Sequence record: QB031380.1
Strand: one strand, 5' to 3'
Length of the DNA: 44,130 nt
DNA from: a phage
Made by a program: the position numbers and the translations under genes. Positions 2,432-44,130 of the stretch are shown piece by piece. Under the pieces are notes generated by a model. The model saw only the letters and a program-made list of their open reading frames with translations. It had not been told where the DNA came from and made no database searches. Each line of letters begins with the position of its first letter. Position 1 is the first letter of the stretch.

Positions 2432-3211
2432 ATGGCTAAAGTCAACCTGAAAAATGTGCGCGTATGTTTCCTTAAAATTTGGGAACGCGATACCCCTAAA
2501 CAGGATGGTCAAAAACCGGCATACCGTGCCGTGATTCTTCTGGATAAAGAAGATCCGCAGGTGGACAAAGTGGAAGCGGCAGCGCGCGCAGTGCTCACCG
2601 ACAAGCTGAAATCCGAGAAGAATGCCGATAAGTGGATGGACCGCCACTACGCCCAGGATTCTAAGGAATGCGCTGTTCGTGACGGTGACGAGCGCGACGA
2701 AGTAACCGAAGAATTTGAAGGCATGTTGTACATCAACGCCAAATCGTTCAAGCAGCCAAACATTCAAACGTCACTCGGCGAGAAGCAGACGGAACAAGGT
2801 CTGACCGTAGAAGGCGACGAGATCGAAGGCCAGGAGATCTACTCCGGTTGTTATTGCAACGTGTCCCTGGATATTTGGGCGTGGAACAATACCAACGGTA
2901 AAGGCCTCGGTGCGGGCTTACTGGGTCTTCGCTTCCGTGATGATGGTGAATCCTTCGGTGGTGGCGGTTCTTCCTGCTCCGACGAAGACCTGGACAACGA
3001 TGACGAAGATGAAAGCCCGCGCAAGTCCAAAAAGTCAAAACGTCGTGATGACGATGACGAAGACGACAAGCCGCGCAAGTCCAAAAAGTCCAAGCGCCGC
3101 GATGACGACGATGATGACGAAGACGAGAAACCTCGTAAACGTCGTAAGCCACGCGATGACGAAGATGAGGACGACGAAGACGAAGCGCCACGTAAACGTC
3201 GCCGCCGTTAA
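2432..3211 (+). CDS. DUF2815-like ssDNA-binding protein with repetitive acidic/basic C-terminal tail
   Basis: N-terminus MAKVNLKNVRV; position between DUF2800-like gene and PolA; track ORF starts at GTG 2411, ATG 2432 has a GAGGA RBS. Confidence 0.6.
   Translation: MAKVNLKNVRVCFLKIWERDTPKQDGQKPAYRAVILLDKEDPQVDKVEAAARAVLTDKLKSEKNADKWMDRHYAQDSKECAVRDGDERDEVTEEFEGMLYINAKSFKQPNIQTSLGEKQTEQGLTVEGDEIEGQEIYSGCYCNVSLDIWAWNNTNGKGLGAGLLGLRFRDDGESFGGGGSSCSDEDLDNDDEDESPRKSKKSKRRDDDDEDDKPRKSKKSKRRDDDDDDEDEKPRKRRKPRDDEDEDDEDEAPRKRRRR
2990..3205 (+). repeat. Tandem ~60 bp coding repeats (DDDDEDD-KPRKSKKSKRR units)
   Basis: Three to four near-identical nucleotide units encoding alternating acidic and basic blocks. 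Confidence 0.7.
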
Positions 3212-5728: not shown

Positions 5729-6006
5729 TGACACCAGAAGGCAAGATCCAAACTCACTTGATGAGACGGGTGAAAGCCGTCGGCGGATTCTGCCGCAAAG
5801 TGGCTTGGGAGGGGCGCGCAGGTGCGCCCGATCTGATTATCATCATCAACGGCAAGATAGTTTTCGTCGAAGTGAAGCGCCCAGGCGGTAAACCTAAGCC
5901 GCACCAGGTACGAGAACATGAGCGAATGGCCCGCCGCGGTGCGGACGTTCGCGTTATCGACAGCATAGCCGACTGTGATTTATTGGTTGCTGAATTGGTC
6001 GCGTAG
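5728..6006 (+). CDS. VRR-NUC domain nuclease
   Basis: 92 aa; GAPDLIII...VEVKRPGGKPKPHQ pattern typical of VRR-NUC; directly downstream of PolA. Confidence 0.7.
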   Translation: MTPEGKIQTHLMRRVKAVGGFCRKVAWEGRAGAPDLIIIINGKIVFVEVKRPGGKPKPHQVREHERMARRGADVRVIDSIADCDLLVAELVA

Positions 6007-11814: not shown

Positions 11815-11843
11815 AAAAAGGGGCCGTGCGGCCCCTTCGCATC
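11815..11843. terminator. bidirectional terminator between convergent genes
   Basis: AAAAAAA-GGGGCCgtgcGGCCCC-ttcgcat; the A-run gives a T-run on the minus strand. Confidence 0.6.
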
Positions 11844-13795: not shown

Positions 13796-14761
13796 ATGGG
13801 CGCTGGAATACTTATCGACTACAACGACGGAAGGCCGGTGATGGAGATAACCGCCGGACTTCGCGCTCCGTCATACTGCACTACGTTTGATCAGCGCTGC
13901 CAGTCCGATAAGACGCTGACCATTAATACTCCGCTAACCCCAGGGTCTGATCTTGTCGTTGCGCTCACGCGTCCGGTAGAAGTGATTGAGGTCTTCGACC
14001 AAACGCTGGTGCTCCCGGACCCATTCTACGTTACGTCTGTACAACGTAACGGGGATAGCGGCATTATTCTACGAGGTGCGGACGCGTATAGCGCATACAG
14101 TGGTCTTCCGCAATGGGCTGGGATAATTATGGAAGTGCTGCCGGTTGGGTCGCGCAATGCTGGCTTACTGGTGGCGAACTCGACGGACTTCACCGCCATA
14201 ACTAACGTATCCAGGCTAATGACATGCCGATATGCGCAGCGCGTTCGCGTCAATGGGAGTATGGCATTGCCAGTCGGCGGTGTTCCGTTCGCGCGCTGGG
14301 ACGACGGCAACGTGTCGGTGGGATTCGATGGTGGTAGTATTATCGTCCGCAACGCGTCCTATGGTGGTATTGACGATGTGGCGGCTTCGGTGGATATGGA
14401 CCTAGTGATATTCAACAACACGCCGCCTTCACCGGGGACAGGCATTACCATGACTAACAACCAGGGACAGGTCACGTTCTCTACCGCTAACAAGCCGTTC
14501 GTCCTCAATTCCGTAATTAATATCGGCACTGGCGGTCAGAATATCGGCAACAGCCTCGTACAGCTTTCATATACTGGCGCGCTCATTGAGAACAACAGCG
14601 GATACAACCATGTGAGAATGAACGGGATACGCATGGCGGGAAACGTGGTTAGCGCGGCACGAAATCGCGTGGTCGGTAACTACTCACGGCAGCAATTCCA
14701 GATGCCTAACCGTAACGTGACCGTACCCACCCCGCTACTAGTCATCCCTAACATGTATTAA
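13796..14761 (+). CDS. hypothetical protein, co-transcribed with the lipoprotein
   Basis: ATG immediately after the lipoprotein stop; about 322 aa; no recognisable motif. Confidence 0.5.
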   Translation: MGAGILIDYNDGRPVMEITAGLRAPSYCTTFDQRCQSDKTLTINTPLTPGSDLVVALTRPVEVIEVFDQTLVLPDPFYVTSVQRNGDSGIILRGADAYSAYSGLPQWAGIIMEVLPVGSRNAGLLVANSTDFTAITNVSRLMTCRYAQRVRVNGSMALPVGGVPFARWDDGNVSVGFDGGSIIVRNASYGGIDDVAASVDMDLVIFNNTPPSPGTGITMTNNQGQVTFSTANKPFVLNSVINIGTGGQNIGNSLVQLSYTGALIENNSGYNHVRMNGIRMAGNVVSAARNRVVGNYSRQQFQMPNRNVTVPTPLLVIPNMY

Positions 14762-14790
14762 AAAGGGGCCGCATGGCCCCTTCGCATTTA
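14762..14790. terminator. bidirectional terminator
   Basis: AAAAA-GGGGCCgcatGGCCCC-ttcgcat, nearly identical to the terminator at 11815. Confidence 0.6.
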
Positions 14791-21002: not shown

Positions 21003-23645
21003 TCATCGTTTGTAAAGTACTCCACCCGGTTTCGTCGCTTTCACGATCTCGGCCTTCACCGCCTCGGTGATTTGCTTGCCGAAAGCCTGCGCTGTGCGTG
21101 GGTCTGGGCTGCTCACACTGGTGTCTGTTTTACCGGTCCCCGTGTAAACGTTAGTCGTCACGATCATACCCCCGCCTGCGACAGAAGCGGCAACGCCCAG
21201 TTTCCCGTCTGGCCCGCGCTTCAGCGGCATGATGGCCTCGGGGCCAGCCTCACCCATCAATCCTGCGCCCTTAGCGAACGCCTGGACGCCATAACTGAAA
21301 AAGGTGGGCTGGCTTACCACTTTCCCCGAATAGGCCGCGAGATTGCCCCCTGCGTACGCTCCGCCGTCCGCATTCTTAGTGAGGCCCGAGAAGATAGCGC
21401 CGAACAATCCGTTTTTGCCGCCGTCGCCACCGAAAGCGCTAACGATGGACTTGAATGCCTGCGATGTAGCCAGCTTGATTAACTCGCTCAGGATGGATTT
21501 AACCATATCCTTTGCATTCAACTTGCCCGTCTCGAAAAACTCGTTCATTGTGTCCTGCATAGCGCTGAATGTGAATTTCGTGAGCGATGCCATCTGCGTA
21601 TATCCGTTACCCATTTCATCCACGCTATCCTTAAGACCGCGGCTGAATCCATCCCATAGCGAGGCGTTAGCACCGGTCTGCGCCTCCTGCACTTCCCGCA
21701 GCTTAGACACGGCCTTGTCGATAGCGGTATCACTCGCGCCGACACGCTGCAAGCGGTCTATTAGCTGCAATTCTTCGCGCAGGTTAGACGCTTCGCGCGT
21801 AGACAGTGCGTAGCCCGCCGCGGTGGCCTTTAGCTCGGCGTTCTGATTCTTGAGGAACGCGTCAACCTGGGATTGGGCTTTGATCTGCTTCTCTTTCGCA
21901 TCTAGTAATTTGGCTTCTTCGACAATCTGCTCGCGCACTTCCTTCACGCGCCCAAACTCCGCCATCTGCTGCTTTTCCGCTGCCGTTAGCGCCCTTTCTT
22001 TGCTTGCGGCGATTAACTGCTCATTATCCGCGATTAGCTTGTTTAAGGCCGCTTGAGCGCGTTGCGTGCGGGTCTGCGCAGATGCGTTGGCTTCGATCTG
22101 CTTGCCCGATTCGCGAAGCTGGGCCAGTTCGCTACGTGCAACTTCCAGCATTTTCATACCGGCATCCACGCGAACAGCCGCAGCCTTCTTCGGGGCCGGG
22201 TCTTTGTAGCGCTCGTTTACCTGCTTCACCGCCTCGGCTAGTTCTTTCTCATTAATCACACCGCGCTTGTTCAGCAAATTGAGGCGGGCGATCTCGTCGG
22301 CGCGCCTCTTCGCGTTGGTGGCGAATTCCTTCTCAAATGCAGCGCGGTCGCGGGCGGCGCGGTTGGCCTCCTCGTTCGCCTTCGCCGATTCGTCCGCGGA
22401 GCGGGCGTTGTCACGCTCCGCGCGGTTGCGCAGAGTTAGCGACGCCACTACTTTCTCCTGGGCGACCAGTTCGCTGTAAAGCATGTTAATACGCGCTTTC
22501 TGCGCTTCGGTCATCACTCCGCCGGCAGCGTTTACCGCTTTCATCTCGGCATAGTAAGCCGTGGTCATGCGCTGCAAGGATTCACGCGCTTTCATCTCGG
22601 ACTCATTGGAGGACTGCGCGCGCCCAACATCCAGGATGGCATCCCACATTGATTTGGCTGCCGATGTGACGACGTTCATAGATCGCTCAAGCGTACCCAT
22701 GTTCGCCTTGATATCGTTTGTCATAGTGGTGAACGACGCGGCGGCGGTTTTGTTAGCCAACGCAACCGCATCTGTCTCGCGCCCCATATCCACCAACGAC
22801 TGCACCTGCTGGATCTGCGCTTCGGTTACAACGTGATACTTATCTGCCAGTGCGCGCAAACCGCCTACTGGGTCGTTTGACAATTTCGCCACCGACGAGA
22901 CCACGTCCTCAATAGGCTGGCCCGACGTCTTTGCAAAGTCATTAACCACCTTAGCTAACCCGCCGAAGTCCGCACCCGCTTTCACACCCGCCGCCGCCAG
23001 TGACTGAATTGTGTCACGCGTCTTGCGGAATGATCCGCCCATCCGCTCGGCGTTCTCAGATAGCACCAGGATCTGGTTAGCGGTGAGGCCAGAAATATTA
23101 CCGGAAAGCGCCAGCGTCTTGTTAAGCGCCGCCACTTGGTTTTCCGCGCGGGACATAATCGACACGCCAACGCCCATCGTTGCCGTTAATGCAGCGATGC
23201 CGATCCCTAACGGGCCGAGGGTGCCGACGACATAACGCAGCGTATTCCCCAACCCGCCAAACGCCCCAGTAAGCTGTGGTAGCTGCTGAAGCATGACTCG
23301 ATGCACCGGCATACCCATCTCAAGCGTTACCGCGATATCCTGTAACTGGAATGCGGCGTTCCGCGATGCGAACCCCAGGTTCTTGGTCGACATGCCTAAT
23401 CGGCTGGCGAGTCGCTCCTGTTTCGTCATGCCGTCGGCGGCGCGCTGCGATTCAGTCGCTAACTTTTCCATTCCGCCCGCGGCGTCGCCAGTAACCTTTT
23501 TCGACTTGCCGAGTGTGTCGTTTAATTTCTTTACTTTCTGTTCTGTGTTCTCGGATTTCTGCGCAAATGTGTCCAGCACAGTATTCGCCGTTTTAATTTG
23601 CGCGACGTCCGCCTTGAGCGTGATGCCCGCTGCCTGATCTGCCAT
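21003..23645 (-). CDS. tail tape measure protein
   Basis: About 880 aa, coiled-coil rich with Gly-rich hydrophobic segment; start taken at ATG 23645 with AAGGGGG RBS. Confidence 0.85.
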   Translation of the reverse strand: MADQAAGITLKADVAQIKTANTVLDTFAQKSENTEQKVKKLNDTLGKSKKVTGDAAGGMEKLATESQRAADGMTKQERLASRLGMSTKNLGFASRNAAFQLQDIAVTLEMGMPVHRVMLQQLPQLTGAFGGLGNTLRYVVGTLGPLGIGIAALTATMGVGVSIMSRAENQVAALNKTLALSGNISGLTANQILVLSENAERMGGSFRKTRDTIQSLAAAGVKAGADFGGLAKVVNDFAKTSGQPIEDVVSSVAKLSNDPVGGLRALADKYHVVTEAQIQQVQSLVDMGRETDAVALANKTAAASFTTMTNDIKANMGTLERSMNVVTSAAKSMWDAILDVGRAQSSNESEMKARESLQRMTTAYYAEMKAVNAAGGVMTEAQKARINMLYSELVAQEKVVASLTLRNRAERDNARSADESAKANEEANRAARDRAAFEKEFATNAKRRADEIARLNLLNKRGVINEKELAEAVKQVNERYKDPAPKKAAAVRVDAGMKMLEVARSELAQLRESGKQIEANASAQTRTQRAQAALNKLIADNEQLIAASKERALTAAEKQQMAEFGRVKEVREQIVEEAKLLDAKEKQIKAQSQVDAFLKNQNAELKATAAGYALSTREASNLREELQLIDRLQRVGASDTAIDKAVSKLREVQEAQTGANASLWDGFSRGLKDSVDEMGNGYTQMASLTKFTFSAMQDTMNEFFETGKLNAKDMVKSILSELIKLATSQAFKSIVSAFGGDGGKNGLFGAIFSGLTKNADGGAYAGGNLAAYSGKVVSQPTFFSYGVQAFAKGAGLMGEAGPEAIMPLKRGPDGKLGVAASVAGGGMIVTTNVYTGTGKTDTSVSSPDPRTAQAFGKQITEAVKAEIVKATKPGGVLYKR

Positions 23646-23710
23646 TATGCAGTCCCCCTTTTTTATGCAGTTGCCGTCGGTCATTGTATCAGCGAATTTA
23701 AAACAAACCT

Positions 23711-24030
23711 TATTCAGTCTCAGACGAGGGGGGCCATTGACCCCCGTCTAGTCTGAAAGACTGGGGGTTGTCCCGCCTGTCCCGATCGGCTAAAACCCGC
23801 GGCAGCACTGACGGGGACAGGGGTGCTGTCCCGCTTTGTCCCGCCTCATTCTGTCCCGCTTTTTGTCCCGCTTACTTTATGCAGAAAAACCGCATAGCTA
23901 TTCACTTTAAGGGGCGGGACAGATCGGGACAGCACCCCTGTCACGCTTTTAGTTTATGCAATGAAAGTGAGTATATATGCGGTTTTAATGGTGGCGGGAT
24001 AAAACGGTACGTCCCGCCTGTCCCGCTTCG
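23711..24030. repeat. Iteron-rich intergenic element, copy 1 (GTCCCGC in both orientations, GC hairpin, AT-rich segment)
   Basis: At least 10 GTCCCGC/GCGGGAC heptamers; 23711-23884 is near-identical to 40531-40705. Confidence 0.8.
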
Positions 24031-24707
24031 TTATGCGGGGTTCTGCCGCGCCATTTCATCCAGCGCAACGCGTTCCATTAGTTTGATATCTTTAAACGCA
24101 CGTTGCGCGTTTTCGATGCCGTGCATCCTAAACAGCCATTCCAGTACGCCGTAGTCGATGCCGTATGCGCCACCAAATCCGGTGCGCCATTGCGTGGAGC
24201 AATCGGTGAAGACTGCGACTACCTTCGCGTTGTCGGGCCATAGCGCAACTGGCGGGCACACGTCTTCAGGTGTCGCGCCCCATAAACTCGCGGCTAAATC
24301 TTCGGAGGGTGGCGGCGGGCCATAAAAGCGCCGCGCCGCCTCAATTAGTTTTTTTCACGCAACCCCATCAATTCGAGGTAGTACGACGTATGGAACACGC
24401 CGAACGCGCGCGGGTAGTTGACCACCAGGCGGCGGACGTTGGCGGCATTAAATTCGTCCGGCAAATTCCAGCCTTCAGCGACGTGCATGATGGCCTCGAC
24501 CATAACGTTAAATCCTTCCGGGTCATTGTCGTCATACTCCGACAACTTGCGTTCAGTGTCCTGCATGGTCTGCGAAAATTCGTCGATAGGGCGGTGGCGC
24601 ACGGTAAACGTCATTTTGCCCGGTTCGTTCTCACCAGGGCGCGGGATCTCAATCGGCAGCTTAAAGGTCGGTTTAGGGTCAAGTGTGAAGAGTGGTGATT
24701 TAGCCAT
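24031..24707 (-). CDS. GT: tail assembly chaperone frameshift fusion (lambda GT-like, -1 frameshift near 24348-24354)
   Basis: The -1 frame is open from the slippery heptamer through to 24031. Confidence 0.55.
24345..24707 (-). CDS. G: tail assembly chaperone (lambda G-like)
   Basis: Upstream of tape measure; ends at slippery site A AAA AAC and stop; internal ATG 24707 with GGAGA RBS. Confidence 0.65.
   Translation of the reverse strand: MAKSPLFTLDPKPTFKLPIEIPRPGENEPGKMTFTVRHRPIDEFSQTMQDTERKLSEYDDNDPEGFNVMVEAIMHVAEGWNLPDEFNAANVRRLVVNYPRAFGVFHTSYYLELMGLREKN
24348..24354 (-). other. -1 programmed ribosomal frameshift slippery heptamer A AAA AAC
   Basis: Heptamer lies immediately before the G stop codon; read directly from sequence. 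Confidence 0.55.
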
Positions 24708-24723
24708 TATGTAATTCTCCAAT

Positions 24724-24750
24724 AAAAAAGGGGCCGTACTGGCCCCATAT
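24724..24750 (-). terminator. terminator/attenuator between major tail gene and chaperone genes
   Basis: Minus strand reads GGGGCCagtacGGCCCC then TTTTTT, just upstream of the G RBS. Confidence 0.55.
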
Positions 24751-24776
24751 TAACACCCGCTATTTAAGCGACCAAA

Positions 24777-29589: not shown

Positions 29590-29619
29590 TTGCACTGCGG
29601 GAATTGGTTGCGCTATATT
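29590..29619 (+). promoter_or_regulatory. sigma70-like promoter TTGCAC-N18-TATATT with GGTTGC elements
   Basis: Hexamers read directly; ATTGGTTGCGC in the spacer and GGTTGCAC just after the -10. Confidence 0.45.
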
Positions 29620-29648
29620 GGTTGCACACCAACAACGAGGACACAAAA

Positions 29649-30414: not shown

Positions 30415-30445
30415 GAAAAAGGGGCCATTACGGCCCCTTAATTAT
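30415..30445. terminator. bidirectional terminator
   Basis: AAAAA-GGGGCCattacGGCCCC-TTAATTATTT; the Rz1 stop codon lies within the hairpin. Confidence 0.6.
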
Positions 30446-30658
30446 TTGCTGCAACTCCAACACCTGCGCCCTCAGCTTCGCGCCGCATTCCATATTTTTC
30501 ACGTCAATCATCAAATCTTCGTCGGGGTCCGCAGACGGGTTATCGAACTTGCACGGCGGTCGCAGCGCCGACTCCGTTAGCGGCATCAACGGCACGTTGC
30601 TTGATCCGCACGCGCTCAGCATCAAAACTACAATCAGGGCGGTTAGGGCGCGTAACAT
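30428..30658 (-). CDS. outer-membrane spanin lipoprotein (Rz1-like)
   Basis: Signal peptide plus lipobox LSACG, Pro-rich mature part; AAGAGG RBS inside the Rz-like gene; starts in another frame within it. Confidence 0.6.
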   Translation of the reverse strand: MLRALTALIVVLMLSACGSSNVPLMPLTESALRPPCKFDNPSADPDEDLMIDVKNMECGAKLRAQVLELQQIIKGP

Positions 30659-37541: not shown

Positions 37542-38033
37542 TTATGCAGCGTTACGACCGATTCGCTCGGCAACGTCCCACTGCTTACCATCAAACAACG
37601 CCTGTCTGCCGATTGCACGGCGTACCAGACCCTTTAACACTTCACCGCCTTGCTTGCGGAACTGCGGCAGAGTAGCACGGACCTTCGCCCAGTCGCCCAG
37701 TCGCACCGCGTCATCGAAATCATTCGCGACGTCATCCGGTACGATAGGACCAGGACCGGCGTTGATTACCAGGTCCACCAGCGCGTCGAATTGCGCCTGG
37801 TTAATGCTTGGATGTGCGTATTTGTTCACCCAGTCCTCGGCATACGCCACGTCGCGCTTTAGCAGTTCCAGCGCTTCCGCGCGGGTAATGCTTCGAGGCG
37901 GATTAGTGCCCGTATGACCATAGCCCCAGGTGTACAGGCCGCGGGCCTGCTCTTTCTTGGTTGCGAAATACGGCACCGGGCTGAAAGCCTCCCATGCTGC
38001 CGTAAATCTTAGACCGTTGTCACTGAATCGCAT
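37542..38033 (-). CDS. endolysin (phage lysozyme, GH24-like)
   Basis: E...Y.W.YGHTG and QAQFDALVDLVINAG pattern typical of phage lysozymes; preceded by two membrane-protein genes. Confidence 0.8.
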   Translation of the reverse strand: MRFSDNGLRFTAAWEAFSPVPYFATKKEQARGLYTWGYGHTGTNPPRSITRAEALELLKRDVAYAEDWVNKYAHPSINQAQFDALVDLVINAGPGPIVPDDVANDFDDAVRLGDWAKVRATLPQFRKQGGEVLKGLVRRAIGRQALFDGKQWDVAERIGRNAA

Positions 38034-38265
38034 GTTTTACCCCATTCAAAACAGCATTACGCAGTGTGCGCAATGCAAACAGCCATATTAACGCGGTCCA
38101 GGTGGTATCAGATACGTCTCCTGTTTGCAACAGTCCGATAATACAGACCATTGCCGTTAACAGATACAGCACCCGGCCGAAAATGCCATCCCGGACGGAC
38201 GGCGCATACACGTTAAACAGGGACGAAGCCCCGATGATAACAAACAACAGGACGGAGATAATCAT
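38020..38265 (-). CDS. holin-like membrane protein
   Basis: 81 aa with two hydrophobic helices, directly upstream of the endolysin. Confidence 0.6.
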   Translation of the reverse strand: MIISVLLFVIIGASSLFNVYAPSVRDGIFGRVLYLLTAMVCIIGLLQTGDVSDTTWTALIWLFALRTLRNAVLNGVKHAIQ

Positions 38266-38552
38266 TTTGCACCCCCCGGAAGTCGGAACGACGCAATAGT
38301 CTCCCTGATCCGGTCGGCGATTGGCATCCAGAAGATCGCAGTTACGAAGCCCAAACCGGCGACAGTGCGCTCACCCGACAAACCAGCCCACTCGGCAATA
38401 GCCGGTGCGCCAAATATGGCACACAGGAAGCCAACTACAACATACAAAACGAAGTTTAGCGGCCCCTTCGTAGCCTCACTATGAATGCGTGCGCCTACGA
38501 AGCCACCCGCCAGACATGCCAGGGCGAATAGCCACTCGTTTAGCTTATCCAT
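38262..38552 (-). CDS. holin/antiholin-like membrane protein
   Basis: 96 aa with several hydrophobic helices, in the lysis cassette. Confidence 0.5.
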   Translation of the reverse strand: MDKLNEWLFALACLAGGFVGARIHSEATKGPLNFVLYVVVGFLCAIFGAPAIAEWAGLSGERTVAGLGFVTAIFWMPIADRIRETIASFRLPGGAK

Positions 38553-38604
38553 AAAAAAGTCCCAGTAAGTTTTAGCTCACTGGGACTATATCACGCTTGC
38601 ATAA

Positions 38605-38931
38605 TTAATCGAAAATGGACCACTTGCCGACGCCTTTCCATTCCCACCCTGATGATCGGACGGCTTCGAATGTTCGACCGCCTATCATATCCCGATACCA
38701 CAGCCACCACATGCGCAACCTGGTTGGGTGCTCCGTGATTCCACGGCGCTTGTATATTTCGAACGTCATGCGGGTAATGCTGGCGGCTTCCACGGCGGGC
38801 CATACGACGAACATCAGGATGCCCAACAGCACCGCGGTAAGCAGGCACAGCCCGCAGATCAAACCAAACCAATAAATCACATCGTGTAACATCGAATTGC
38901 CCCTTCCGGTTTGCCAATATGGCGCGCCCAT
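38605..38931 (-). CDS. putative membrane protein
   Basis: Hydrophobic stretch VIYWFGLICGLCLLTAVLLGILMFVVW; an overlapping alternative frame exists. Confidence 0.35.
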   Translation of the reverse strand: MGAPYWQTGRGNSMLHDVIYWFGLICGLCLLTAVLLGILMFVVWPAVEAASITRMTFEIYKRRGITEHPTRLRMWWLWYRDMIGGRTFEAVRSSGWEWKGVGKWSIFD

Positions 38932-39013
38932 GCACGCGCCACGAAGTAATTGCGAAATACCCGACCGCCTATCTCAAAGCGGTTATGCTGAAGCATATCA
39001 CGGATCGTCGCAC

Positions 39014-39586
39014 TCATTTCAGAATCACCGAGCGCGGGTCGACGGCCTTCATGCTGCCGTCACGTTCGACCCGGATGAATCCAACGCCGTATTCCTGCGC
39101 ATGGCGCTGTGCATTCGTCACGGCATCAAAGCGATTAATAATCTCATGCGTCGCCTGGCGTATCGGGCCCATCACTTTGCTCGCGTCGTAGGTCGCATAG
39201 GCGGGCTGCGACTTGCGGAACTCCACACGCGTCTTCTTCGCCACGTCATGCGGATGGTTGTCACGAAGGTGGTATTTCCGGCCTACTCGTTCGTAGTTGA
39301 CAAGGCCGAAGTAAGTCATACCGGCGACGCCATCCTTGCGGGATTGCATACGCAGACCATGAAGACCGACATATTCTACGATCCACATACTGCCGTCGCG
39401 AATATCACGCAGCACATCGCCGCGCTCGATATCATGCGTGACAATATCGTATTTCTCCGGCAGCTTTGCCTTACTCGCCCACCATACAAGATCGCTTGCG
39501 GCGTGGTGCAAGCGGACGTGTGCCGCAAGGGTCTGTATTGGTCTCAGGATTTTGCCGTCCGATTTACGGCGGAATAGTAATTTCAT
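39014..39586 (-). CDS. hypothetical protein
   Basis: 190 aa with GAGGAG RBS; ATG overlaps the stop of the upstream small ORF. Confidence 0.5.
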   Translation of the reverse strand: MKLLFRRKSDGKILRPIQTLAAHVRLHHAASDLVWWASKAKLPEKYDIVTHDIERGDVLRDIRDGSMWIVEYVGLHGLRMQSRKDGVAGMTYFGLVNYERVGRKYHLRDNHPHDVAKKTRVEFRKSQPAYATYDASKVMGPIRQATHEIINRFDAVTNAQRHAQEYGVGFIRVERDGSMKAVDPRSVILK

Positions 39587-39717
39587 TGTTCTGTCTCCTC
39601 AATTTCATCGATAGTCTTCGTGTCGCCATCGCATACCGTAGCGATGCCGTTTTGTTCGTAGTCAAGTACGCACATATGCAGGTAGATAAACTCCTGCGAG
39701 AATCCGCCTATCATCAT
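39583..39717 (-). CDS. small hypothetical protein (44 aa)
   Basis: ATG overlaps the upstream stop and its TGA overlaps the downstream ATG; peptide MMIGGFSQEF...EETEQ. Confidence 0.3.
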   Translation of the reverse strand: MMIGGFSQEFIYLHMCVLDYEQNGIATVCDGDTKTIDEIEETEQ

Positions 39718-39983
39718 TTGCGCAGTCTCCAGTGTTTGCCTACCCGCTCGACTGCAGGCTTCCGGCGGATGGTAATACGGATTCCAATTGGTTGCAAGGA
39801 CGTTTTTATGGCAAGCCCATGCTCCCTGGCGAACTTGTGCAGATAGCGGGTCTGCGTTAACGGCTTAACATCGTCGCGATAGCTCCAGAACACAGAATCG
39901 CCCTCAACCGCATTCTGCGCCCATATTCGTATGCAATGCAGTGGAATATGCCATGAAAGCTGTTTAGCTCGTCTGCGGTCCAT
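39714..39983 (-). CDS. hypothetical protein
   Basis: 89 aa ORF with AAGGGG RBS. Confidence 0.4.
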   Translation of the reverse strand: MDRRRAKQLSWHIPLHCIRIWAQNAVEGDSVFWSYRDDVKPLTQTRYLHKFAREHGLAIKTSLQPIGIRITIRRKPAVERVGKHWRLRK

Positions 39984-39992
39984 TTTGGCCCC

Positions 39993-40319
39993 TTATTTCG
40001 CAAGCTGGGCGAATAGCTCGCGTTGGGCTGCAATCCGGGCGATGTTTGTCGCTGCCGTCTCACCGACCCCGAAGCGATACGCCAGGCGCTCACGGGAGAA
40101 TGCCAGCGCGTAGTCCTGGATGGCGTTCGCCAGTGGCTGGATCTCATCCATCGTGTCGAAGCGGCGCTCAAGCATCACGGCGATGGCCCGCTGCATTACC
40201 CTCACAACGGCCCACGCTGCCGATAGTCTTTCTACTGCTTCCGCCCCCTCACCGGCGAACTCCGCCGCTTCTTGTGCCTTCGCCATGGCCATTGCGTAAT
40301 TCCAGATTAATTTTTTCAT
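39993..40319 (-). CDS. hypothetical protein
   Basis: 108 aa; first gene downstream of the promoter at 40348-40376. Confidence 0.5.
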   Translation of the reverse strand: MKKLIWNYAMAMAKAQEAAEFAGEGAEAVERLSAAWAVVRVMQRAIAVMLERRFDTMDEIQPLANAIQDYALAFSRERLAYRFGVGETAATNIARIAAQRELFAQLAK

Positions 40320-40347
40320 CGTTCAGTCCTCATGTTGGTGTGCAACC

Positions 40348-40376
40348 AATCTAGCAGGGTGCTGGCTCGAATGCAA
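40348..40376 (-). promoter_or_regulatory. sigma70-like promoter TTGCAT-N17-TAGATT flanked by TTGGTTGCA elements
   Basis: Minus strand reads ATTGGTTGCAT...TAGATTGGTTGCAC. Confidence 0.45.
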
Positions 40377-40530
40377 CCAATATTAATCATGCGCATGAAA
40401 AAGTTGATCGCTATCTGCTGTGACTGCAAACTGCATTTTTCGCACCACGTTCTGCATCTCGCATTGGTTGCCTAGTTCAGTGGCGACCGCAATCCGCAAC
40501 ATGCTGCCGTGTATTTTGCAATCCCGGATT

Positions 40531-40705
40531 TTATGCAGTCTCAGACGAGGGGGGCCATTGACCCCCGTCTAGTCTGAAAGACTGGGAGTTGTCCCGCCTG
40601 TCCCGCTCCTCGCCAGGCCGCGTCATCCGGGGCGGGACAGGGGTGCTGTCCCGCTTTGTCCCGCCCTTGGTCTGTCCCGCTTTTTGTCCCGCTTACTTTA
40701 TGCAG
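40531..40705. repeat. Iteron-rich intergenic element, copy 2
   Basis: Near-identical to 23711-23884; bounded by TTATGCAG at both ends; about 8 GTCCCGC/GCGGGAC heptamers. Confidence 0.8.
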
Positions 40706-40740
40706 TTTTATTGCATAACTATTCACTATATTTTTACTAC

Positions 40741-40790
40741 ACGGCAACCAATGCGACCGACTAAAAATACACAAAACGGCAACCAATGCG
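40741..40790. repeat. Direct repeat ACGGCAACCAATGCG x2 just downstream of the primase/helicase stop
   Basis: Two identical 15-mers about 34 bp apart. Confidence 0.6.
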
Positions 40791-40798
40791 CGCAAAAT

Positions 40799-43063
40799 TT
40801 AATCTTTCAGGTCGTCATCGGTAGCTGAAAGCGTTATGGGGATATCCGATTTGATGACTAAATTCGACGACCCATATATGGCCCCGGTGTGCGGATCTGT
40901 ATAAAAACCAATCACGCCGCGCTCGACCATATCGTCGATTGCCTTCGTCGAAGTACCACCCTTAGCGAGTCCCGCCTGGCGGACAATTGCCGATTTACTG
41001 AATCCAGTATGGTCCGGGTTATCTTCCATCAGTTTTTCCAGGGCCGCATAAAGCACTTTCTCTTTTTCGTTGCGCGGTCCGGCGGCGTTTTCTTCCTTAA
41101 CTGCAGCTTTGCCCGCGGCCTTCGCCTGTTCGATGGCGAACGGTGCCAGGGCGACCGGTACGAGGTACAGAGTCTCGTCGCGTGGCGTGGACGCAATTGG
41201 TTTAACGTCCCAACCGGCAACTACGTCGCCGAAGTCCGGCCCGGTGCTGGTGGACTGGTGCGACGCGAACGCTTCTGACTTGCGGAGATCTACCTTCACC
41301 TTGCACTTGAGCAGGACGAAGCCACGCGGCGCTTGCTTGATGCCATTACGTGATTTTTCGTGATACAGGTTAAGTTGTCCCGGCTGGTTGTCGTCCGGCT
41401 GTTCCAGGAAGAAAGCGGAATCGACAGCACCATGCAGTGCGCCGGACCCACGGGGAGATCTGCTACCGTTTGCACCCTTCGCAGGGTGGTGGATGACGCC
41501 CGCACTGCCGCCTGTGTTTTCCGCGATGGCTTTTAGCGCTTTAACCACTTCGCCCATATCGCTGGCGTTGTTCTCGTCAAACGGTTTAGCATCGGCGGAC
41601 CGCAGCGCAACAGTCTGGTTGAGTGAGTCGAACGCCACCAGGCCAACAGGTTCGCCGTTAGCGGTGCGGTTGATAAAGCTGATAACTTCGCGCAAACCGG
41701 ACTTGCTGGTGATATCCCAGCCGCGGGACTGCAGGTCTATAATGTGCAGCTTGTCCAGGTCGTGCTCGTATTTAATCTGCAATGCTTCTTTGCGCTGGTT
41801 GGAGGCTTCGCCGCCTTCCGCATCAAAATAGAAGCAATGCGACTGGACTACCTTCGCACCACCAAACGGAATACCAGCGGCAACCGCACCCATCTGCCCC
41901 AGCACGTAGAAGGACTTACCTATGTTCGACTCGCCCGCCATATACCAGGTCGATTTGAAGTTAATCAGCCCTTCGATGATCGGGTCGTGCTTGCTGAACA
42001 GTGCGACCGGCTCGTTATCCAGGTCTGCGTCCGTACATTCGCCGTATTCTTCGCCGTCGCCAACCGCATCAACAATATGATCATATAAGGATTCGACTTC
42101 CTCGTCGTCCAGACCTGGCAGGATGGCGGCGATTTGCTTACGTGACATGTTGTGTGGCTCGACGTTCAGGTGGTCCGGGATACCGATAAGACGTAGCGCC
42201 AGGTGCTGGTGTCTATTCAGCTCCGAGCAACACTCGTTGCCTGTGTGCATACACTTGAAACGGATCTCGCCATCCTTAACCATGATAGCCGTCGACCCTT
42301 CGCCGCTGTGCAGATGTTCGTTCGGGCACGGCACTTCATAACCGCGACCGGATGATAACTCCTCGAATCCTGCCTGGAAGCACCAGTCCAGAATGCCGTC
42401 TGCCACTGCGTCGTCGCCCTGGGTAAGCTCGCGGCGTACTTCCTCTTTCTCCACCCCCAGCTTGTCAGCCAGGCGGAGCAGACGCCGCACATTTGCACGT
42501 TTGCCGTAGTGACACTTAATGACAGACTGCTGGTGTGGCAGGTACATAAGACGGTTTGTGTCCTTCGTACAATCGTCGAAGTCCACATCTGACAGGCCCA
42601 GTTGGTGTAATAGCGCATACTGGACACGGCCCAGGTCTTCCGCCGGGACAGGCTTGTCAGTGAGTACCAGGAAGCGAGCGCAACGCGTTCCGCCTTTCAG
42701 TGGGTGGCGGTCGCCGGTGGTTGTGTGGAATACGTGCTCCAGCCCCGCGTCGATGAAAGCCTTACGGCAGCGGCGTAGGGTGCGGGTGTCGGTACGGTCA
42801 ATATCGAAGAACAGGATCGAGCGGTCCACCGCACTGGTCTTGCGGCGTAAGCCGTCACTGGTATACGCCACGATGCCATCGGCCTTACGCTTGCGGCGTG
42901 CATACTCGGCTTTATCTTCCGTCTTGTTGATATGCACCGAGGAGATTTCTTTCGCATCATTGATAAATTCGAAAAATTCATCGGTGGTCATCTGGAAGTT
43001 TTCCGCCCTGGCTTTTTCGCCTTTTTTAGCGGGTCTTGTTACAGCGAATTTAATTAAGCTCAT
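40799..43063 (-). CDS. DNA primase/helicase (primase-like N-terminal region plus RecA-like ATPase)
   Basis: 754 aa; Walker A GESNIGKS; Cys-rich middle segment. Confidence 0.65.
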   Translation of the reverse strand: MSLIKFAVTRPAKKGEKARAENFQMTTDEFFEFINDAKEISSVHINKTEDKAEYARRKRKADGIVAYTSDGLRRKTSAVDRSILFFDIDRTDTRTLRRCRKAFIDAGLEHVFHTTTGDRHPLKGGTRCARFLVLTDKPVPAEDLGRVQYALLHQLGLSDVDFDDCTKDTNRLMYLPHQQSVIKCHYGKRANVRRLLRLADKLGVEKEEVRRELTQGDDAVADGILDWCFQAGFEELSSGRGYEVPCPNEHLHSGEGSTAIMVKDGEIRFKCMHTGNECCSELNRHQHLALRLIGIPDHLNVEPHNMSRKQIAAILPGLDDEEVESLYDHIVDAVGDGEEYGECTDADLDNEPVALFSKHDPIIEGLINFKSTWYMAGESNIGKSFYVLGQMGAVAAGIPFGGAKVVQSHCFYFDAEGGEASNQRKEALQIKYEHDLDKLHIIDLQSRGWDITSKSGLREVISFINRTANGEPVGLVAFDSLNQTVALRSADAKPFDENNASDMGEVVKALKAIAENTGGSAGVIHHPAKGANGSRSPRGSGALHGAVDSAFFLEQPDDNQPGQLNLYHEKSRNGIKQAPRGFVLLKCKVKVDLRKSEAFASHQSTSTGPDFGDVVAGWDVKPIASTPRDETLYLVPVALAPFAIEQAKAAGKAAVKEENAAGPRNEKEKVLYAALEKLMEDNPDHTGFSKSAIVRQAGLAKGGTSTKAIDDMVERGVIGFYTDPHTGAIYGSSNLVIKSDIPITLSATDDDLKD

Positions 43064-43073
43064 TGCCGTGGCC

Positions 43074-43403
43074 TTACTTAGAAGTTTTATTATTGCGTAC
43101 CCATGAGCGCACTGTGCTCTGATTAATTCCTGTCAACTCAGCGATCATTGCCCAGGATTTGCCCTCGGCGCGCAAACGGATAACCTGTTTTTTGTATTCT
43201 TCCATTTCTTCATTGTGCTTTTGCAGCTTGCTGGCTGCCGTACCGTTGAGCAATTCCAGCCTGGCGCGTAATTCTTTTTCTACACTGCGCAGGCGCTCGA
43301 CCTCAAATAGCACCGCACCCACGGCATCGGTATACGCCCAGGACCGGCTTGTCTCACTGCAAACAGTCTTAGTTAACATTTCTATTGCGTCGTTTACATT
43401 CAT
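43074..43403 (-). CDS. HTH DNA-binding regulator
   Basis: 109 aa; C-terminal GKSWAMIAELTGINQSTVRSW helix-turn-helix; GAGGA RBS. Confidence 0.6.
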   Translation of the reverse strand: MNVNDAIEMLTKTVCSETSRSWAYTDAVGAVLFEVERLRSVEKELRARLELLNGTAASKLQKHNEEMEEYKKQVIRLRAEGKSWAMIAELTGINQSTVRSWVRNNKTSK

Positions 43404-43434
43404 TGCTCTGTCCTCGGTTGGTTAATGACCAACG

Positions 43435-43463
43435 AAGCTACACCTAAAACCGCAGGGTGTCAA
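43435..43463 (-). promoter_or_regulatory. sigma70-like promoter TTGACA-N17-TAGCTT for the HTH regulator gene
   Basis: Perfect -35 hexamer; palindrome CGTTGGT-catta-ACCAACG lies between the -10 and the RBS. Confidence 0.5.
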
Positions 43464-43476
43464 CTTCTTTGGAATA

Positions 43477-43504
43477 TTGAAACGGGCGCGCACGCGTGTA
43501 ATAA
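43477..43504 (+). promoter_or_regulatory. sigma70-like promoter TTGAAA-N16-TG-TAATAAT, divergent from the regulator promoter
   Basis: Hexamers and extended -10 TG read directly. Confidence 0.45.
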
Positions 43505-43532
43505 TACCCCCGTCTCATTGTCTCTTATTGGT

Positions 43533-43569
43533 TAGCGCCGTCGCATTTTGCTTCGGCGCTTTTTTTTTG
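43533..43569 (+). terminator. Rho-independent terminator
   Basis: AGCGCCG...CGGCGCT stem followed by a run of nine T. Confidence 0.6.
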
Positions 43570-43579
43570 AAATTAGTTG

Positions 43580-43608
43580 TTGACTCCCTCATGCAACCAA
43601 TCTAATAT
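43580..43608 (+). promoter_or_regulatory. sigma70-like promoter TTGACT-N17-TAATAT with TGCAACCAA in the spacer
   Basis: Hexamers and motif read directly; about 200 nt upstream of the ATG at 43805. Confidence 0.45.
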
Positions 43609-43804
43609 TCACCTCGTCGACAGGATGCAGGACGCAAACTGGAGAGGGGCAACGCAGGGGCCGGATCGAAGTGTCAGGATTCCCAACCGTGATTATATAA
43701 CCAGGTCCACTACCCGAACGGGAGAACGCGTAACCTGGCAATATGTTAAGGCCACCGACGAAGTTAATGGTCGACACCTAAACTTAACCAATCGGAGATA
43801 TACC

Positions 43805-44130
43805 ATGTTTGAGCAAATCGTAAACCTGATCACTCGCGGCGTAGTAGCACTGGAAACCATCGCAAAACATTATGAAACCGTGGGCGCTGCCGTTGGTAAG
43901 CAGGAAGACAAGAAGCCGTCTAAGGCCAAAAAAGAAGTTGTCGAAGATGACGACGCTGAAGACGAAGCACCGGCGAAAACCAAAAAAGCACCGGCGAAAG
44001 GTAAGGCCAAAAAAGAAGTCGTAGAGGATGACGACGAGGATGAATCCGAAGACGAAAAACCGGCGAAGGGTAAAAAAGCACCCGCGAAAGGCAAAGGTAA
44101 GAAAGATGCCGATCCGCTAGCAGAGATGCG
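43805..44130 (+). CDS. N-terminal part of an acidic/Lys-rich repeat protein (runs off the window end)
   Basis: ATG with GGAGA RBS; repeats of KKEVVEDDD and KAPAKGK; no stop before the window end; not in the ORF track. Confidence 0.5.
   Translation, partial: MFEQIVNLITRGVVALETIAKHYETVGAAVGKQEDKKPSKAKKEVVEDDDAEDEAPAKTKKAPAKGKAKKEVVEDDDEDESEDEKPAKGKKAPAKGKGKKDADPLAEM

Follow-up and report, generated by a model that had tools for sequence, protein, structure and literature searches.

The mechanism of the replication origin of plasmid RSF1010, oriV, with its priming signals of the ssiA/ssiB type, has been described (PMC4234260). Here we discuss a phage locus for which oriV, together with the proteins RepA, RepB', and RepC, is the closest functional match. 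The phage genome is sequence record QB031380.1, and we refer to all 44,130 bp of it as the window. It is the complete genome of a Dhillonvirus, i.e., a virulent siphophage of Escherichia coli that is similar to HK578 and SO-1. The locus is the entire 479-bp non-coding gap (40320-40798, minus strand) between the stop codon of a gene for a primase-helicase of 754 amino acids and the next gene (39993-40319). In the GenBank record for SO-1, it is annotated as a repeat_region, "region B," and we will use that name. Judging from the sequence, we think that region B is probably a replication origin and that the primase-helicase encoded just upstream of it is the initiator. This model is based on the anatomy of region B, on its conservation, on the folds of the protein's domains, and on the genes that similar repeats adjoin in other genomes.

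The phage locus resembles RSF1010 in the folds of its proteins, a RepA-like helicase (Pfam AAA_25) and an archaeo-eukaryotic primase (AEP) of the RepB' type, and in having a cis region with iterons, an AT-rich tract, a GC-rich segment, and inverted repeats that can form hairpins and so have the potential to act as ssiA/ssiB-type signals. There are also clear differences. The plasmid uses three proteins, while the phage has one polypeptide, with a C-terminal winged helix in the presumed place of RepC. The iterons of RSF1010 are direct repeats of ~20 bp, while those of the phage are 7-8 bp and of mixed orientation, and the plasmid has two separate ssi sites where the phage has a single palindrome. 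Finally, RSF1010 is a plasmid, whereas the window is the genome of a lytic phage with a second copy of the repeats (region A) 17 kb away.

The original prediction compared the locus to the satellite phage P4. According to the work of Ziegelin and Lanka, P4 reportedly has type I iterons (TGTTCACC) in two cis elements, ori and crr, that are 4.5 kb apart and are both needed; in the window, the repeat unit is (G)CGGGACA and the two loci are 16.8 kb apart. The alpha protein of P4 binds DNA with a winged helix (PMC4234260). As in P4, the phage has one multifunctional primase-helicase with a C-terminal winged helix (which, by analogy, would bind DNA), short repeats on the scale of an octamer in both direct and inverted orientation, and two separated loci, one of them right after the initiator gene's 3' end. 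But alpha combines a Toprim (DnaG-type) primase with a superfamily 3 (SF3) helicase of the D5/P4 type, while the window's protein combines an AEP primase with a helicase of the RepA type (superfamily 4). Because of these domains, we do not consider the primase-helicase to be alpha-like, and with a different iteron as well, P4 is an analogy rather than a relative.

In its anatomy, the phage locus is closer to oriV of RSF1010, to plasmid pRN1, and to oriL and oriR of Bacillus phage SPP1. SPP1 has two regions of direct repeats with an AT-rich unwinding element, oriL and oriR, and the second of these lies among the late structural genes (PMC6316719). It has been proposed that initiator bound at oriR stalls the replication fork and thereby switches replication to the concatemeric mode (PMC3485210). 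Dhillonviruses, which a 2022 genome announcement describes as understudied, package their DNA by a headful mechanism (PMC9022532). SPP1 and the window's phage are lytic siphoviruses of ~44 kb with headful packaging, and both have two similar origin-like regions, one with the replication genes and one in a long intergenic segment in the late genes. In contrast to the window, SPP1 has a separate initiator (gp38), loader (gp39), and DnaB-type helicase (gp40), with no fused primase. Its oriL lies within gene 38, and it has no sequence similarity to the window.

In the archaeal plasmid pRN1 (orf56/orf904) and in Bordetella phage BIP-1, the origin is immediately downstream of the replication gene and includes a stem-loop that is required (PMC4234260). 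The order of elements is the same as in the window: a small DNA-binding regulator, a protein with AEP primase, helicase, and winged-helix domains, and then the origin (putative in the window). However, the helicase in those systems belongs to SF3, and their stem-loop is 100 nt long and lacks iterons, while in the window a stem-loop of 49 nt is flanked by iterons.

Anatomy of region B

Region B contains the classical features of an origin: direct and inverted iterons, a tract that is 83% A+T, a GC-rich segment, and a stable palindrome. Reading along the gene (minus) strand from the stop codon, the order is a pair of CGCATTGGTTGCCGT repeats, the "TGCATA box," the iteron array, a quasi-palindrome, a CACGGCAGCA box, an inverted CGCATTGGTTGCC repeat, and a pair of ATTGGTTGCA sites. 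The two direct CGCATTGGTTGCCGT repeats (40741-40755 and 40776-40790, minus strand) lie in AT-rich DNA just past the stop codon; the 15-mer ACGGCAACCAATGCG occurs exactly twice, at these positions, with a distance of 35 bp, so the two direct repeats that had been reported after the array do exist. Relatives have 2-3 copies of CGCATTGGTTGCCGT at this site. Next is an AT-rich tract (40693-40740, minus strand) that includes the TGCATA box (GTGAATAGTTATGCA-N6-CTGCATAAAGTAA). We consider this tract to be a candidate DNA-unwinding element, and the 83% A+T applies to positions 40706-40735.

The iteron array (40590-40692, minus strand) has six (G)CGGGACA units in direct orientation and another that is inverted, along with a GC-rich spacer. 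On the plus strand, units of the TGTCCCGC type start at 40591, 40600, 40648, 40658, 40674, and 40686, and the inverted unit at 40632 creates the palindrome GGGACAGCACCCCTGTCCC. The unit closest to the primase-helicase extends to 40692, so that 106 nt separate it from the stop codon, in agreement with the earlier estimate of about 100 bp. The window contains 21 copies of GTCCCGC, compared to 9.2 +/- 2.8 in shuffled sequences (0 of 100 shuffles reached 21), and 15 of the 21 are within regions A and B.

Beyond the array is a 49-nt quasi-palindrome (40536-40584; either strand) of the form CAGTCT..AGACG-G5-loop-C5-CGTCT..AGACTG. When folded as DNA, its two strands have energies of -13.3 and -14.3 kcal/mol (z = -3.8 and -3.7), and it is a candidate for a cruciform or for a single-strand initiation signal. 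Still farther from the primase-helicase gene, the conserved CACGGCAGCA box (~40500-40512) adjoins an inverted copy of the CGCATTGGTTGCC repeat (40460-40472, plus strand). Finally, just upstream of the gene at 39993-40319, there are two ATTGGTTGCA sites with the -10-like hexamers TAATAT and TAGATT (40342-40382, minus strand). These two sites are kept in relatives, and they are probably promoters for the downstream genes, outside of the duplicated module.

Regions A and B are non-coding: indels (1, 9, 16, and 56 nt), including frameshifting ones, separate close relatives. Neither region matches any family in Rfam. Scans of both regions, arrays included, for promoters and terminators found nothing above the background of shuffled sequences; the promoter scan required a -35 element, so it overlooked an extended -10 element in region A that we later identified by eye. 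We also considered and rejected some other explanations for parts of these regions. The GC-rich hairpin is not a terminator, as it has no U-tract on either strand and there are four canonical terminators elsewhere in the genome. The TTATGCA(C/G) sequences are not DnaA boxes, as the CACA end of the box varies among copies. And TGCATA-N17-CATAAA is a poor match to a sigma-70 promoter, whose T at -7 is not conserved.

The primase-helicase and its small neighbor

The open reading frame for the primase-helicase (40799-43063, minus strand) does encode 754 amino acids, as had been claimed. The protein has an N-terminal RepB'-like AEP primase domain, a zinc finger, a RepA-like AAA_25 helicase domain, and a C-terminal winged helix, which is the domain that the original prediction would have used in binding assays. 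AAA_25 (the RecA fold of RepA and DnaB) was the sole match in Pfam (E = 2e-19), and its matches in PHROG are also RepA/DnaB-like. A sequence search of the PDB gave just a weak match to RepA, and in a search against plasmids, the sole full-length match was a 44-kb record that is phage-like. Both a RepA-type helicase and a RepB'-type AEP primase are present, as in IncQ systems, and no RepC-like match was found among the proteins that we tested from this part of the window.

Across lineages, conservation of the primase-helicase is lowest in the winged helix. The start of its presumed recognition helix varies between lineages that have different repeats (TST or TNT, DRY, or KRR). The primase-helicase is the presumed initiator. 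Another candidate for binding the repeats, or else for a regulator, is a helix-turn-helix (HTH) protein of 109 amino acids that is encoded directly upstream of the primase-helicase (43074-43403, minus strand; Pfam HTH_23, E = 2e-7, and Sigma70_r4_2, E = 2e-6). A small HTH gene is found at the same position in all of the related lineages.

Region A, the copy among the tail genes

Region A, which also bears that name in the SO-1 record, is a 385-bp non-coding interval (23646-24030, minus strand) between a gene for a gpT-like chaperone (24031-24261; Pfam DUF1799) and the tape-measure gene. It has three tandem modules, each with a cluster of iterons and then a TGCATA box, and the last module and its palindrome are homologous to region B. 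The second iteron array that had been claimed is real: 23710-23909 matches 40531-40730 at a constant offset of 16,821 bp, in three blocks with 85%, 100%, and 87% identity. The array of the third module (23769-23871, minus strand) is the paralog of 40590-40692. Additional direct, inverted, and palindromic units are at 23912-23946 and 24011-24027, and many of the clusters in region A have a symmetry of two direct and two inverted units, including the perfect palindrome CGGGACGTCCCG. The region A copy of the 49-nt quasi-palindrome (23715-23763, either strand; -13.4 kcal/mol, z = -3.65) does not differ from the region B copy at any position within the module.

The extended -10 element, TGATACAAT (23683-23691, minus strand), lies 24 nt downstream of this palindrome and upstream of the tape-measure gene, and it is retained in 17 of 17 copies of region A. 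The first ATG of the 893-codon tape-measure reading frame (23684) overlaps it, so the true start of the gene is probably the ATG at 23645. That start has a strong ribosome-binding site, AGGGGGA, and yields a protein of 880 amino acids, which is also the length annotated for the tape measure of phage PC2. A related phage, Edwardsiella phage eiAU, has an unannotated gap of 870 bp between the tape-measure gene and a gene similar to gp16 of SO-1 (PMC3025963, Table 1), and this gap may contain an element like region A.

Conservation within Dhillonvirus

We found 159 phage records that match region B, and nearly all of these have two matching places per genome. Across 21 distinct copies of region B, the column identity was 0.89 for the CGGGACA units, 0.92 for the TTGGTTGC repeats (the core of the direct repeats by the stop codon), and 0.93 for the TGCATA boxes. 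By comparison, it was 0.71 for the other intergenic positions (the spacers) and, at the 3' end of the helicase, 0.58 for third codon positions. So selection acts on the motifs in region B. Between phages, the palindrome keeps its stem but varies in its loop (tcaatgg, tcagcgg, ccaactga, gtctggca, and others). The stem is invariant in all copies, which left no variation to score for covariation; the copies from IMG/VR were retrieved by an exact match to the 5' half of the palindrome.

We also compared the module that A and B share. Copies of A from different genomes have an identity of 0.875 to each other, and copies of B have 0.81; identity between A and B is 0.79 within a genome and 0.77 between genomes. 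Because orthologs are closer than paralogs, we conclude that the duplication is old and that A and B are maintained separately. There is only slight homogenization of A and B within genomes (permutation test, p ~ 0.001).

Similar gaps in related lineages

Homologs of the primase-helicase with 43-68% identity share a common layout: the small HTH gene, the primase-helicase, a non-coding gap of 350-650 bp, and then small genes, lysis genes, and terminase. A repeat-rich gap after the orthologous gene is present in five lineages (including the window), down to 43% identity of the protein, and three of the four other lineages have repeat units of their own. L009 (68% identity to the window's protein) has the window's motifs in its gap. 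Salmonella phage St162 (43%) has six copies of GGGGAGA, two of GAATAGTTATG, and three of TTGGCTGC, along with GC-rich hairpins. L010 (46%) has pairs of GGGGATC and GATCCCT and five copies of TTGGCAGC, and L011 (47%) has TTGCGA/TCGCAA and six copies of TTGGCCGC. A CGGCAGC box is common to all five. Clustered short repeats and an AT-rich tract beside the gene for a putative initiator, in a conserved position, are what is expected of an iteron-type origin.

CGGGACA arrays in unrelated viruses

We scanned IMG/VR with a DNA pattern, CGGGACANAAANCGGGACA, and made no use of protein information. Besides Dhillonviruses, the scan identified 19 unrelated viral contigs (GC content of 44-64%) with CGGGACA arrays of 5-14 units. 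(These arrays lie within the loci that we numbered L045-L095; for example, L047 7756-8014, L078 996-1184, and L082 12925-13075.) In 10 of the 19, the array starts 0-15 nt past the stop codon of a gene for an AAA_25/RepA-like helicase (Pfam E = 1e-32 to 1e-36; PHROG 2850, 906, or 3228), or overlaps it. In another 4, the array is within a gene that matches "replication initiation O-like," "DnaD-like helicase loader," or "replication initiation protein," and a DnaB helicase gene adjoins in 2 of these 4. The neighbors of the remaining 5 arrays are not recognizable, except that one of them (L084) adjoins a gene for the small terminase. Several of these arrays also flank a palindrome (for example, L046 and L084).

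Judging by its association with genes for helicases and initiators, the CGGGACA array is a recurring part of replication modules, like the iterons of origins. The ten helicases resemble the window's protein in the helicase core only, at 24-27% identity. The four arrays within O-like genes are reminiscent of phage lambda, whose ori iterons are bound by an initiator and lie within gene O, beside an AT-rich region. The window differs from lambda in that its array is outside of the initiator gene, the putative initiator is itself a helicase-primase, and there is no P-type loader.

A promoter-associated motif that is shared with region B

The direct repeats just past the stop codon of the primase-helicase have a core, GCAACCAAT / TTGGTTGC, that is not specific to region B. 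The 9-mer GCAACCAAT occurs 14 times, versus 0.67 expected, and the 8-mer TTGGTTGC(A) has 23 sites in the window (for example, at 5983, 8925, 8942, 10615, 13509, 29604, 29618, 37050, 37073, 40342, 40373, and 43593). In SO-1, 15 of 21 TTGGTTGC sites are within the non-coding 6.5% of the genome (P = 5e-14, binomial test), and most sites precede a gene of the same orientation by 18-93 nt. The motif sits at the -35 position, the spacer, or the +1 position of sigma-70-like promoters and points in the same direction as the gene that follows. Most likely, a phage regulator uses it as an operator, or it is a conserved element of the core promoter.

The suggestion that this locus is a cis-acting replication element thus fared differently for its two parts. 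The iterons gained support from the gap that is conserved in five lineages and from 14 of the 19 external arrays, whereas the ACGGCAACCAATGCG repeats, as instances of a mostly promoter-associated motif with 23 copies, are not specific to an origin. Still, lineage-specific variants (TTGGNNGC) concentrate in the gap after the primase-helicase in relatives: this gap contains 3 of 3 sites for TTGGCTGC, 5 of 5 for TTGGCAGC, and 6 of 11 for TTGGCCGC. So we consider the motif to be a conserved part of region B. We did not find TTGGTTGC-type motifs in region A or in the external CGGGACA loci.

A 23-nt inverted repeat (29612-29634 and 40333-40355; 96% complementary) places ATTGGTTGCACACCAACA and a ribosome-binding site before two genes on opposite strands, and the TTGGT-TGCAC-ACCAA within it could form a hairpin at the 5' end of the mRNA.

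Layout of the genome

The gene order of the window is as in phages PC2 and SO-1, and 38000-44130 is 89-93% identical to many phages in GenBank. Replication genes are transcribed rightward from ~200 to 11.8 kb. From near 43.4 kb, a single long leftward unit carries, in order, the genes for the 109-residue HTH protein and the primase-helicase, then small genes, genes for lysis, terminase, head, and tail, and finally the tail fiber. The phage also encodes an exonuclease, a Gp2.5-like annealing protein, and a RusA-like resolvase.

The four canonical intrinsic terminators are nearly identical to each other (AAAAAGGGGCC-loop-GGCCCCTT; 11815-11842, 14760-14787, 24721-24751, and 30416-30446), and one of them is directly after the gene for the major tail protein. 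Tandem coding repeats of 54 and 90 nt (2997-3201 and 43933-44111) are rich in GAT, GAC, GAA, and AAA codons and encode acidic/basic tails of low complexity; the repeat at 2997-3201 is at the 3' end of the gene for the Gp2.5-like single-stranded DNA-binding protein. Also, two records, "Acinetobacter phage NJ01" and "Campylobacter phage A144," share 90-92% identity with this genus of coliphages, so it is likely that these host labels are wrong or that the records are contaminated.

Discussion

If region B is an origin, then how might it work? We infer the binding, melting, and priming steps, as well as the role of region A, from the comparisons above. Soon after infection, the primase-helicase, possibly aided by the HTH protein, would use its C-terminal winged helix to bind the repeats adjacent to its own gene (the CGGGACA units, the TTGGTTGCC units, or both). 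Its oligomerization on the direct and inverted sites would open the adjacent tract of 83% A+T, and the RepA-like helicase ring could then load. Once unwound, the 49-nt quasi-palindrome would form hairpins on one or both strands, and the RepB'-like AEP primase domain might make the first primers there, as RepB' does at ssiA and ssiB, before the phage's DNA polymerase takes over. Region A, as an old and independently conserved partial duplicate, might be a second origin or an accessory site for binding the initiator, for which crr of P4 and oriR of SPP1 would be models.

A broader version of this idea is that CGGGACA arrays mark a widespread and undescribed class of phage origins and that the second site in Dhillonviruses is a fork barrier or a second origin. 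The initiators of this class would include fusions of AEP primase and RepA-like helicase, plain RepA-like helicases, a DnaB-N/RepA hybrid, and proteins similar to lambda O or DnaD. By analogy to what has been proposed for oriR of SPP1, the site in the tail operon would control the switch to concatemeric replication. We view this broader idea as possible but doubtful. If it is true, then the shared heptamer implies either a portable recognition module that is invisible to sequence comparison or a common unknown factor.

Several observations weigh against our interpretation of region B as an origin and region A as its partner. St162 has one such locus in its whole genome, which implies that a second site is not needed in general; as far as has been shown, the second copy is a feature of Dhillonviruses. 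Region A lies directly upstream of the conserved extended -10 element of the tape-measure operon, so an upstream regulatory element would fit as well, and the TTGGTTGC repeats are mostly associated with promoters. As mentioned above, 5 of the 19 external arrays have no recognizable replication gene as a neighbor, and one of these is beside a terminase gene. When we compared the winged helix to the C-termini of the other helicases that adjoin arrays, we found no relationship (hhalign probability of 0.8%), so this comparison does not explain how such different proteins would read one heptamer. Also, GC skew and AT skew do not shift at region A or B. Their signs change only with the direction of transcription (at ~11.8 kb and ~44 kb), so the skew is uninformative about the origin.

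Could these regions control transcription instead? They might be operators or upstream activating arrays for a phage DNA-binding protein, such as the 109-residue HTH protein. Region B would then govern the switch from early to late genes after the primase-helicase, region A would boost or gate the operon for the tape measure and the tail tip, and the palindrome would be a protein-binding site or a roadblock. Both copies have the same orientation within one leftward transcription unit of 29 kb; B is at the boundary between the replication genes and the lysis and structural genes, and A is 24 nt upstream of TGATACAAT. The symmetric clusters in region A look like operators for dimers or tetramers, region B contains five copies of the promoter-associated TTGGTTGC, and every lineage has the small HTH gene before the primase-helicase. 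Transcriptional control is the main rival, and its best support is the position of region A and the symmetry of its clusters. Nevertheless, we consider it to be unlikely, because CGGGACA is absent from the promoter region of the HTH gene and from all of the other promoters in the genome, and because the arrays in B are 150-300 bp upstream of the nearest promoter-like sites. Furthermore, in unrelated phages the arrays are at the 3' ends of helicase genes or within initiator genes rather than at the starts of operons, and lineages whose regulators are of the HTH_3 type keep an equivalent region of repeats.

It seems quite improbable that the small terminase uses the arrays as pac sites, or that they serve recombination-dependent replication as hot spots. 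The pac site of the headful-packaging Dhillonviruses has not been mapped (PMC9022532), one external array (L084) is next to a small-terminase gene, and at least five GenBank records (BMA1, WFI, Pandora71, 101114B2, and PEC9) start at the equivalent of ~40421, which is ~100 bp from B. The exonuclease, annealing protein, and resolvase would suit recombination. But B is 5 kb and A is 11 kb away from the terminase genes, it would be unusual for a genome to have two pac sites, and the association with genes for helicases or initiators (14 of 19 contigs) is far stronger. The common start of those records is probably more simply explained as a convention taken from a reference genome; the paper behind some of them says nothing about termini. 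We give hardly any credence to the last explanation, that the 200-bp repeat was duplicated as a selfish or neutral element (similar to a miniature inverted-repeat transposable element) or a structured RNA with no role in replication. Having two copies with blocks of up to 100% identity would be consistent with this, as would their slight homogenization, and a transcript of region B folds somewhat better than shuffled sequences do (z = -2.7). However, the positions of the copies are fixed in essentially all of the 159 matching records, orthologs are more similar than paralogs, and selection acts at the level of motifs. Nothing in Rfam matches, and the stem lacks variation that could show covariation. 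The palindrome folds equally well on both strands, which points to a DNA element rather than an RNA. Overall, we continue to favor the explanation that region B is an origin.

The similarity of A and B is not a new observation, as the SO-1 record already annotates them as similar repeat regions and mentions a possible function. Among the papers that we searched, we did not find any that assigns a function to these regions or that describes an origin for a Dhillonvirus, and neither CGGGACA nor TGTCCCG occurs in the papers that were listed by our search on iterons and origins. What appears to be new is a putative iteron-type origin that combines an initiator with AEP primase, RepA-like helicase, and winged-helix domains, a cis region with IncQ-like anatomy, and, within the tail operon, an old duplicate. 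The CGGGACA arrays beside the replication genes of unrelated phages are an additional lead. One heptamer near the replication genes of unrelated phages would be a simple signature for predicting origins, and its recurrence raises a concrete question of how it is recognized.

Dhillonviruses are common coliphages in phage collections and in work on phage therapy. A defined pair of origin and initiator would make it possible to build phagemid or plasmid tools, to test for resistance by origin titration, and to engineer these genomes rationally. A fusion of these domains beside an IncQ-like cis region would link the strand-displacement replicons of plasmids with the replication of lytic phages. 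And the conserved site in the tail operon would be a tractable Gram-negative counterpart of SPP1's oriR for studying how phages switch from theta to concatemeric replication.

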